Source of the DNA: an uncultured SAR116 cluster alpha proteobacterium | Lineage (GTDB): Bacteria; Pseudomonadota; Alphaproteobacteria; Puniceispirillales; GCA-002684695 | Reading direction: 5' to 3' | Assembly: GCA_902612965.1 (NCBI GenBank) | Contig: CACMFN010000002.1 | Location: forward strand, 30,456-94,455 | DNA length: 64,000 nt | Part shown: positions 10,670 to 13,101 of the stretch, one piece after another | Layout: each line of letters opens with the position of its first letter | How positions within the stretch are numbered: position 1 is the first letter of the stretch | Notes under the pieces: generated by a model | What the model saw: only the letters and a program-made list of their open reading frames with translations | Database searches by the model: none | What the model was told of the DNA's origin: nothing | Program-made: the position numbers and the translations under genes

Positions 10670-10730
10670 ATAATATTTTTTTGAAAATATATTTTAAAAA
10701 GATATATAAAAATAAAGTATGGAGATTAAT

Positions 10731-11552
10731 ATGAACTTTGTTCCAGCACCTATGCCAGATAATGAAAGCCGAAGACAAGAGGCTGTAGAGCGTTTACAAA
10801 TTAAAGGCACTGACCAACATGATGTTATGATTGTTTACAGTGAAATGGCACAAGAATTAACTGGGTTTGCAGCAGTTGCTGCAACTTTATTTGACGCAGA
10901 TAGCCAATACTCACTTGCATCTTGTAATTTTCCTGGAAAAAGTGGTGATAAATTAATGGATAGGGCACAAAGTATTTGCTCATACACCATACTCAGCAAT
11001 AAACCAACTCTAATTCCAGATACTTCTTCAGATCATAGGACGGCCAATCATCCAGCAGTTTTATCAGGCATGTGTAAATCTTATGCAGGTTTTCCTATAA
11101 TCAATAAAGACAACTATGCATTGGGTAGTTTTTGTTTAGTTCATCCAGAAAAAAAGGAGTTAAACAGTCAGCAGATTATTTTAATTCAAAAATTAGTTGC
11201 CCGTCTTGCACATCAATTGGATACTCAAAGTGAGCAAAGAGAAGTAACTTCAAATAAAATACAAAATGCTATTAATATATTTTCTGAAGTTGCGCCAGGT
11301 GCATCTTTAGATGATTTCAAATACTTTATTAGTTTATGTAGTGACAAAAAAGTGTCTTCATCACTGCTACAAAATTTGATAGATCTAGATTTATGCATTC
11401 TTAAGGAAAACAACATAACATTAACTCAAAAAGGAAGAGAAACTCAACAAAAGATGGGGCTTCAAACTAGGATCCTTCAAAAAATGAAAGTTGAAGGAGA
11501 CGCAGCTGATAGTATGGTCAATGATATGCTCTCAAAATTAGGAGAAATATAA
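10731..11552 (+). CDS. GAF domain protein with a possible degenerate winged-helix C-terminus
   Basis: PAPMPDNESRR N-terminus, SICSYTI, D-RTANHP, YAGFPII, LGSFCL are typical GAF motifs; GGAG at 10721 favours ATG 10731 over 10719. Confidence 0.8.
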   Translation: MNFVPAPMPDNESRRQEAVERLQIKGTDQHDVMIVYSEMAQELTGFAAVAATLFDADSQYSLASCNFPGKSGDKLMDRAQSICSYTILSNKPTLIPDTSSDHRTANHPAVLSGMCKSYAGFPIINKDNYALGSFCLVHPEKKELNSQQIILIQKLVARLAHQLDTQSEQREVTSNKIQNAINIFSEVAPGASLDDFKYFISLCSDKKVSSSLLQNLIDLDLCILKENNITLTQKGRETQQKMGLQTRILQKMKVEGDAADSMVNDMLSKLGEI

Positions 11553-11893
11553 TGTATGCTAAAGTTTACCAGTACAAATTTCCAGGAATAAGTGAAGCTA
11601 AAGTAGCGGCTGCGTTTTGTTCTGATTATTTAGGTCAAAAAATTGATGAACATAATTTTCATGGTTTAAGTGTCTTAATAAGCCAGGAAGGTGATTTAAC
11701 CATTTTAATTAAATTTGATGATGTAACTAAGTTGAAGTCGTTTGATAAGGTTGCAGATCAATTTGTAGAAGATTTAAAAAATTCATTTGTATTTAAAGAA
11801 AATAAATATGCAGGTATTTACGTATATAATTATGAAAAAGAAGCCACTATCAATGAAATCAAACTGACTGGCCCTGCAAAAGTATCAAATTAG
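11552..11893 (+). CDS. Hypothetical 113-aa protein, translationally coupled to the GAF gene
   Basis: TAATG stop/start overlap with GGAG upstream; composition of a soluble alpha/beta protein. Confidence 0.75.
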   Translation: MYAKVYQYKFPGISEAKVAAAFCSDYLGQKIDEHNFHGLSVLISQEGDLTILIKFDDVTKLKSFDKVADQFVEDLKNSFVFKENKYAGIYVYNYEKEATINEIKLTGPAKVSN

Positions 11894-11939
11894 AATAATT
11901 TAAGTTTTTATTGCAAAATAATATTTCTTAGTTTAAAAA

Positions 11940-11954
11940 GAACATAACAAGAAC
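11940..11954 (+). promoter_or_regulatory. Putative LexA (SOS) box, alphaproteobacterial type
   Basis: GAACataacaaGAAC (minus strand GTTCTTGTTATGTTC) = GTTC-N7-GTTC; intergenic, just downstream of a TTGCAA(11911)-17-TAAAAA promoter-like element. Confidence 0.75.
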
Positions 11955-11969
11955 AAATTTTTAGTAGTA

Positions 11970-12116
11970 ATGTTTATTTTAAAACTTTCTCAAAGCTTAA
12001 GTATTTTAATTATTGTATTAAATCTCTCATTAATCTTGGGTTTTGCATTTAGTATTTCGCTATTTTTATCATTTTCAGCATTAATTGTATCAAATTTTTT
12101 AATTGATATTAATTGA
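11970..12116 (+). CDS. Unannotated 48-aa hydrophobic small protein
   Basis: ATG 11970 to TGA 12116: MFILKLSQSLSILIIVLNLSLILGFAFSISLFLSFSALIVSNFLIDIN; fills a 266-bp gap in an otherwise compact window; no clear Shine-Dalgarno. Confidence 0.55.
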   Translation: MFILKLSQSLSILIIVLNLSLILGFAFSISLFLSFSALIVSNFLIDIN

Positions 12117-12159
12117 GAACTTATTATGAAGTATTTATATTTTTAAAGTATAAATACCT

Positions 12160-13101
12160 ATGAATAATCAATTAAAAAAATTAGTAGCAGACTTTGGGGG
12201 CACTCACTTACGCATTGGCATATCAAACGAATTAGAAATAAATAACATATCTAAAATTAGATATAATAACGAAACTTCATCCATAAAATTAATTTCAAAC
12301 TATATAAACGATTTTAAAGACATTGATCAAATTAGAATATGTGCCGCTGGACCGATTGAAAATGAGAAAATTGAGATAACAAATAGTAACCTTGTAATTT
12401 CCAAAAAAGAAATTTCTGAATTCAGTAAAATTGATGATGTTGTAATTTTTAATGACGCTGAAGCCGCGTGTAATTATTTACCTGTGATTAAAAAAGAATC
12501 TTACAAAACTGTTAACTATGGAAAGTCTTTGAATAATAACTTTGCATATATTGCTTTAGGCACTGGTTTAGGTGTTTCAGGTGTGCAAAAATTAAAAAAT
12601 AAGTCAGTAGTTTTTTCAGGGGAAGGTGGGTATTGTCATATTCCTTATACAGAAAATGATACAATTTCGCGAGATGTAATTAATATTATTCAGGAGTACT
12701 ATCCAAGAATTTCATCTGAAAGACTTATTAGTGGCCCAGGACTGTCTTTAATTTTTAAAGCACTTTGTTTGTTAAAAGATTACAAATCAAATCTTTCATC
12801 AGAAGAAATTGTACTGAATGCTGTCAAAAATAAAAAAGGATTTGAATATGATGCTTGTAAAATATTATTCGAATTACTTGGTAAATTTTCTGCCTCTATT
12901 GCTTTAGTATATGGAGCCAGAGGTGGAGTATTTTTAAGTGGGGGTCTTTTGGAGAGACTTTTCCCAATTTTACCAAATGACTTACTTTTAAAAAATTTTT
13001 TAATTAATGGCAGAATGCAAGAATATGTGAATAATATACCCCTTCATATTATTAATGATGATTTAGTATCTTTAAAAGGTTGTGCGGCCTATCAAGAATA
13101 A
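12160..13101 (+). CDS. glk: Glucokinase (Glk family)
   Basis: LVADFGGTHLR, AAGPI, NDAEA, GTGLGV, GEGGY, SERLISGPGL, GGVFLSGG. Confidence 0.85.
   Translation: MNNQLKKLVADFGGTHLRIGISNELEINNISKIRYNNETSSIKLISNYINDFKDIDQIRICAAGPIENEKIEITNSNLVISKKEISEFSKIDDVVIFNDAEAACNYLPVIKKESYKTVNYGKSLNNNFAYIALGTGLGVSGVQKLKNKSVVFSGEGGYCHIPYTENDTISRDVINIIQEYYPRISSERLISGPGLSLIFKALCLLKDYKSNLSSEEIVLNAVKNKKGFEYDACKILFELLGKFSASIALVYGARGGVFLSGGLLERLFPILPNDLLLKNFLINGRMQEYVNNIPLHIINDDLVSLKGCAAYQE

Follow-up and report, generated by a model that had tools for sequence, protein, structure and literature searches.

LexA blocks SOS promoters until RecA on single-stranded DNA triggers LexA self-cleavage. To our knowledge, the means by which most alphaproteobacteria arrest division after DNA damage are not known outside Caulobacter.

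The SOS division inhibitors reported outside the gammaproteobacteria are small membrane proteins of 29 to 165 amino acids that show no homology to each other and that are encoded divergently from the SOS repressor; according to the same account, further inhibitors of this kind are likely to be undiscovered (PMC13689564). Two small Caulobacter proteins are described in PMC4211646, SidA (29 amino acids), which acts on FtsW, and DidA (71 amino acids), which binds FtsN. YneA is reported to bind transmembrane helix 7 of FtsW, and its transmembrane segment alone does not block division (PMC13396833). Short hydrophobic SOS peptides of another kind are TisB (29 amino acids) and DinQ (27 amino acids); TisB is described as having a strip of alternating charges, a long processed leader and an RNA antitoxin (PMC8309996).

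This report concerns a small gene in a 64,000-nucleotide stretch of DNA (the window) from an uncultured alphaproteobacterium of the SAR116 cluster, whose genome is 2.14 Mb in size, has a GC content of 31.5% and is 83% complete. The gene encodes a hydrophobic peptide of 48 amino acids behind a LexA-type box. The family that it belongs to is new and has no name; the LexA-boxed small membrane protein as a kind is already known. By analogy with the inhibitors listed above, the peptide may be the lineage's own brake on cell division. A literature search that combined SAR116 or Puniceispirill with LexA or the SOS response, with supplementary tables outside its reach, found no report on this lineage.

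The small gene resembles sidA of Caulobacter crescentus (NF033228) in its GTTC-N7-GTTC-type control and in the very small, hydrophobic and membrane-predicted product, but there is no sequence match and the product has 48 residues instead of 29. It also resembles the YneA/SosA/ChiZ/DivS class, i.e., small, LexA-boxed, lineage-restricted, predicted membrane proteins without homologues. However, it is not divergent from lexA, which is on another contig beside gltX, the product has no LysM or other extramembrane domain, and the type of operator differs. DidA is a small membrane protein too, with a proposed role after damage, but it is SOS independent and activated by DriD, whereas the small gene has a LexA-type box. 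Finally, the E. coli type I toxins of the TisB/IstR-1 and DinQ/AgrB systems are also short hydrophobic peptides under a LexA-type box; unlike them, the peptide has no charged strip, and neither a long structured leader nor an antitoxin RNA was found at the locus.

The locus and its LexA-type box

The features of the locus are listed in Table 1. The box and the small gene are located in a 266-nt gap within a region of 20% GC, with a GAF-domain gene and a 113-amino-acid gene without a known family upstream and glk downstream. An earlier note, made from the letters of the window alone, had described the promoter, the box, the 15 nt between the operator and the ATG at 11970 and the 48-codon reading frame, and all of these are where it had placed them. 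The single Lys and single Asp that it counted in the peptide are K5 and D46 (GRAVY 1.83), but the gap that it called the largest in the ORF track is the third largest in the window (338, 300 and 266 nt).

Table 1. Features of the small-gene locus, in window positions
Feature	Position	Strand	Evidence
Predicted sigma-70-type promoter: -35 TTGCAA (11911-11916), 17-nt spacer, -10 TAAAAA (11934-11939)	11911..11939	+	sequence
Putative LexA-type operator, core GAAC-N7-GAAC = GAACATAACAAGAAC (11940-11954)	11939..11955	+	matrix rank, column conservation, Caulobacter match
Small gene: hydrophobic 48-aa protein, orphan family of one genus, predicted membrane helix	11970..12116	+	conservation, pN/pS, AlphaFold2
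AT-rich inverted repeat separating the small gene from glk	12131..12157	+	fold score
Glucokinase gene (glk), constant 3' neighbor of the small gene, possibly co-transcribed	12160..13101	+	Pfam PF02685

The operator directly follows the -10 element and overlaps the predicted start site. A consensus promoter scanner, which requires a T at position 6, did not call this -35/-10 pair. In all 10 loci compared, the box is immediately preceded by an element of the form TTGCA/TTGATA ... TA(A/T)AAA. The leader is predicted to have about 24 nt and to be unstructured (fold z +1.66), and no Shine-Dalgarno sequence precedes the ATG in the host genome. The GAF-domain gene and the 113-amino-acid gene (window positions 10719-11893) are an insert that is missing from two congeners (G002 and G006) and from one further locus (L141); the 113-amino-acid protein has matches, often multiple ones, in 30 of 61 genomes.

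The motif by itself proves nothing, since the bare GAAC-N7-GAAC form is not enriched in the host genome, where it occurs at 24 sites compared to 15 to 44 sites for other spacer lengths. The box was judged with a 17-column matrix, trained on 35 distinct lexA and recA boxes of relatives with the host and small-gene boxes left out; because the training boxes were chosen by their closeness to the known consensus, only the spacer and the flanks are learned by this matrix. The small-gene box ranks first in the host genome with 23.3 bits, ahead of two recA boxes (19.9 and 19.7 bits) and a site before mraZ (18.8 bits). With each of 20 column-shuffled matrices, no site in the host genome scored as high as the small-gene box. 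The four sites just named are the only intergenic ones above 15 bits, and so, the strong LexA regulon of the host looks minimal.

The box is conserved as well. In five aligned loci, 15 of its 17 columns are invariant, compared to eight of 45 just upstream and three of 14 in the leader. Five of the seven congeners have the full box (G001, G002, G004, G007 and G006, the last at a contig end); of the other two, the contig of G003 stops within the box and G005, which is 61% complete, also lacks glk. The box keeps company with the small gene and glk even where the upstream genes differ, as in G002, G006 and L141, which have a DUF445 gene directly upstream. Of 121 genomes of the order, 99 contain a strict form of the box, a pattern partly shaped on the small-gene site itself; read backwards, this pattern occurs in none of them. 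In the loci examined, the strict form is mostly ahead of umuD, whose promoters in the order are built like that of the small gene: a TTG hexamer, then a -10 element in direct contact with the box, and an ATG 9 to 25 nt later.

GTTCN7GTTC is given as the Caulobacter consensus, and GTTCttgttatGTTC is listed for two Caulobacter SOS genes (PMC12700426); read on the opposite strand, the small-gene box is identical to the sequence listed there. The first rank in the matrix scan, the conserved columns and this match point to a genuine LexA-type operator, as the earlier note had supposed, and the small gene is very probably repressed by LexA.

Does the host have LexA? Contig C34 begins with the C-terminal half of lexA, which adjoins gltX; this half scores above the TIGR00498 cut-off and is 99% identical to the full-length LexA of two congeners (G001 and G003). 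A search for the LexA DNA-binding domain was blank in the host, which is explained by the contig break inside lexA; the gene is present but truncated by the contig end, and the part encoding the DNA-binding domain lies beyond the assembled sequence. The domain was found in five of the seven congeners and in 53 of the 61 genomes searched. In line with the check that the earlier note had proposed, the same type of box precedes recA and lexA, and it precedes umuD as well. Two boxes are located before recA in five of five loci, including that of the host, while lexA is preceded by two inverted boxes in five of five congeners and by boxes in 12 of 12 loci of the order. The lexA and umuDC promoters of the host fall in assembly gaps; umuD is not in the assembly, and contig C50 begins inside an apparent umuC.

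Coding evidence and predicted product

In a region of such low GC content, and with a bare motif that is not enriched genome-wide, one might suppose that a hydrophobic ORF and a motif had come together by chance. The first-ranking box, which is conserved while its flanks diverge, speaks against this explanation, and so does the reading frame. The ORF (47 to 48 codons) is kept in frame in five of the seven congeners with 45 to 100% identity, as well as in four of four further loci, and its frame is the only one that is free of stops in all seven distinct sequences. Counted inside three clades, the changes are synonymous in 19 cases and non-synonymous in 11 (pN/pS about 0.17); the synonymous excess has a binomial p of about 2e-6 under a simple site model, with relatives that are not independent of each other. 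One congener pair runs against the trend, with two synonymous and five non-synonymous changes. The variable columns are distributed 22/10/34 over the three codon positions (43 codons). Among the 162 intergenic ATG ORFs of 30 to 69 amino acids in the host genome, only two reach a GRAVY of 1.5, and the small gene is the higher of the two. Coincidence, which we would give next to no chance, is thus effectively refuted, and the sequence comparisons make the small gene almost certainly a real gene. The conservation of box plus ORF and the purifying selection that the earlier note had proposed to look for were both found in the congeners, and the findings that it had named as adverse at the sequence level, i.e., a genome without lexA or a box or frame that is not conserved, did not turn up. 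The other of the two highly hydrophobic short ORFs is located at G000:C14:17854 on the plus strand of the host genome and has 49 amino acids.

The earlier note had also considered the gene to be missed by gene callers, which is true in part. Relatives are present in gene catalogues, but the three that were looked up are unnamed and 23 of the 32 catalogue clusters are mis-started, being calls of 70 to 71 amino acids that begin upstream and run through the box. These 23 over-long proteins have 0.5 departures per site in the 47-amino-acid core compared to 2.8 in the extension upstream of it, and the start is accordingly assigned to the second Met. One call of 87 amino acids (P0033) shares its first 38 residues with the family and then diverges; it was treated as chimeric or frameshifted.

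AlphaFold2 predicts that the peptide is a single helix from residues 2 to 47 (pLDDT 93). About 37 hydrophobic residues form an unbroken run, which is long for a single transmembrane pass and makes a kink or a hairpin at about Gly24 plausible. The invariant residues include S11, N18, G24, A26, S30, S34 and S41; the peptide has nine serines and no soluble domain.

The homologues appear to be confined to one genus, in agreement with the earlier description of a lineage-specific small membrane-protein gene. The family has five representatives among the 1.84 billion proteins searched, and a search of 184 further genomes of the order gave no convincing homologue. Four weak matches outside of the genus (E 0.002-0.008) are in ORFs of 131 to 897 amino acids and were dropped as chance. 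With 11 family members, neither Pfam (best E 0.093) nor NCBIfam (best E 0.023) returned anything named, and none of these 11 aligned members matches the SidA profile at E<=10. The best match in the ESM Atlas has an E of 0.85, which is lead level only, and Foldseek found no match to the peptide model in the PDB.

Candidate roles of the peptide

The role that we favor, though with a confidence somewhat short of even, is that of a SidA-like brake on the late divisome. LexA on the operator would block the small-gene promoter, and after damage RecA on single-stranded DNA would trigger its self-cleavage and so release the gene; repression by LexA with release on DNA damage is very likely, since the evidence on the operator, combined with what is established about the SOS response, leads to it. 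The peptide is predicted to insert into the inner membrane, where the conserved S11, N18, G24, A26, S28, S30, S34 and S41 could serve as small or polar residues of the helix-packing kind. It may then bind the late divisome (FtsW/FtsI/FtsN) and halt septal wall synthesis, as reported for SidA, DidA, YneA and SosA.

Several observations favor a division brake. Neither SidA nor SulA was found: the SidA profile, which recovered its Caulobacter positive control, matches none of 61 genomes, and SulA was not found in the one genome searched for it, the 83%-complete host. A full dcw cluster with ftsW is present. There is also the precedent of small, unrelated SOS membrane inhibitors outside the gammaproteobacteria. 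On the other hand, the small gene is next to sugar genes and not divergent from lexA, and it is restricted to one genus although LexA is present in 53 of the 61 genomes. The peptide also lacks a soluble domain, while the transmembrane segment of YneA by itself fails to block division, a comparison that would count against a brake. The boxes sampled in other families have no equally hydrophobic small ORF directly behind them, with one weak candidate (L112, see below), and so, related bacteria may manage without such a peptide. In the absence of homology to the known inhibitors, a positive result would represent another independent origin of a checkpoint made from a small membrane protein. The small gene is a conserved and concrete candidate inhibitor from a marine lineage that is found in seawater metatranscriptomes.

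A peptide of this size and hydrophobicity under an SOS box would also fit TisB and DinQ as they are described in PMC8309996, and it is conceivable, although rather unlikely, that it lowers the membrane potential or slows growth generally, leading to dormancy under damage. The nine serines and the invariant Asn18 could line the polar face of an oligomer. However, K5 and D46 are the only charged residues, compared to the alternating-charge strip given for TisB in that source, and the predicted leader is short and unstructured, unlike the long processed one of TisB. Rfam had no matches in the 266-nt gap, and promoter-like matches are at chance level (three found, 2.6 expected), likewise on the minus strand. 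The missing charged strip, the leader of about 24 nt and the lack of an Rfam RNA all weaken the case for a TisB-type toxin; the blank Rfam search also leaves the small RNA that the earlier note had offered as an alternative target of the box without support.

The neighborhood of the small gene brings up sugar metabolism. glk follows the small gene in five congeners and four further loci, a sugar ABC transporter cluster adjoins the locus, and no canonical terminator was found between the small gene and glk. The RNA runs carrying this stretch are marine or aquatic metatranscriptomes. Assembled contigs partly cover the ORF in five of the eight runs examined (X1, X3, X4, X7 and X8, from four studies) and do not cover it in the other three (X2, X9 and X10); the eight are taken from 14 runs that contain the stretch, and such contigs carry no level, strand or start and may include DNA. 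One contig spans 11986-12308, bridging the small ORF into glk, which is possibly co-transcribed with it. The peptide might therefore be a LexA-induced modulator of some other membrane complex (the sugar ABC transporter, the elongasome, the respiratory chain or a membrane protease) that, jointly with a co-induced glucokinase, ties carbon flux to damage. We regard this as unlikely, to about the same degree as a depolarizing peptide. A promoter-like site of glk's own (TTGAGA-17-TATATT, 12113-12141), which overlaps the inverted repeat, and the intervening hairpin would separate the two genes, though both are weak. In 24 loci, the glk homologues of other families have neither the small ORF nor a comparable box, the best match (15.1 bits) being inside a coding region, and a literature search for glucokinase with a LexA box and the SOS regulon found nothing.

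The inverted repeat has a fold z of -2.45 in the host and of -0.45, -1.63 and -1.76 in three congeners. The congeners have hairpins of differing sequence at the same place before glk, none of them significant alone, and the hairpin was rejected as a conserved element. Matches of 10 to 15 bits about 230 nt before the glk homologues of family f3 are inside coding sequence and were also rejected.

The earlier note had considered glk as another possible target of the box. If the box served glk, or if the RNA came from read-through, the small gene would be damage independent or a mere leader. Two RNA-library contigs (11889-12073 and 11873-12022) begin upstream of the predicted promoter and cross it, and so, read-through or DNA may contribute to the coverage; the missing Shine-Dalgarno sequence would also be in keeping with a leader. 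However, any RNA that starts at the boxed promoter runs through the small ORF before it can reach glk, the 15 nt from box to ATG are within the umuD range, and the contrast between the core and the extension of the over-long catalogue proteins indicates that the protein sequence is under selection. We therefore consider a box that serves mainly glk to be quite improbable.

LexA-type boxes before mraZ and other genes

The 18.8-bit site before mraZ in the host genome has counterparts elsewhere. In the host and three congeners, the dcw cluster has a LexA-type box at its head, just after the 3' end of rnpB and ahead of mraZ. Boxes in this position are about 100 to 290 nt upstream of mraZ and occur in families f1, f2 and f4 (G000:C8:16817, i.e., L225:518; L119, L123 and L131; L099, L100 and L107; L205-L222). 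Among 20 further loci of the order, picked for spacers that are not of the umuD type, 12 have the rnpB-mraZ box. This distribution of sites suggests an order-wide SOS control of the division operon through the mraZ box. A literature search on mraZ with a LexA box and the dcw cluster found nothing relevant; in E. coli, the dcw cluster is documented to carry LexA boxes at its 5' end (PMC3265435).

Taken together with the division brake discussed above, one could imagine an independently evolved, nearly purely hydrophobic division-checkpoint peptide in a streamlined marine alphaproteobacterium that has kept strong LexA sites only at lexA, recA, umuDC, the peptide gene and the head of the dcw cluster (mraZ). 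This combined picture is doubtful, but if it were true, damage would reach division by two routes, a new membrane brake and the LexA-controlled division operon, and three families of the order would have the second route in common.

Some boxes precede genes of other kinds. At L112 (G022:C1:1451367), a box is followed after 47 nt by a 51-amino-acid ORF that has a hydrophobic stretch at its C-terminal end and may be an analogue from another family. At L217 (G138:C9:20053), a TTGCAT hexamer and a box precede a cysteine-rich ORF of 69 amino acids. In family f4, a strong box is located before a protein of about 90 to 110 amino acids that has a WC(N/H)RC motif and a later CxxC, resembling a zinc ribbon (L211, L214, L215, L224, L103 and L118).
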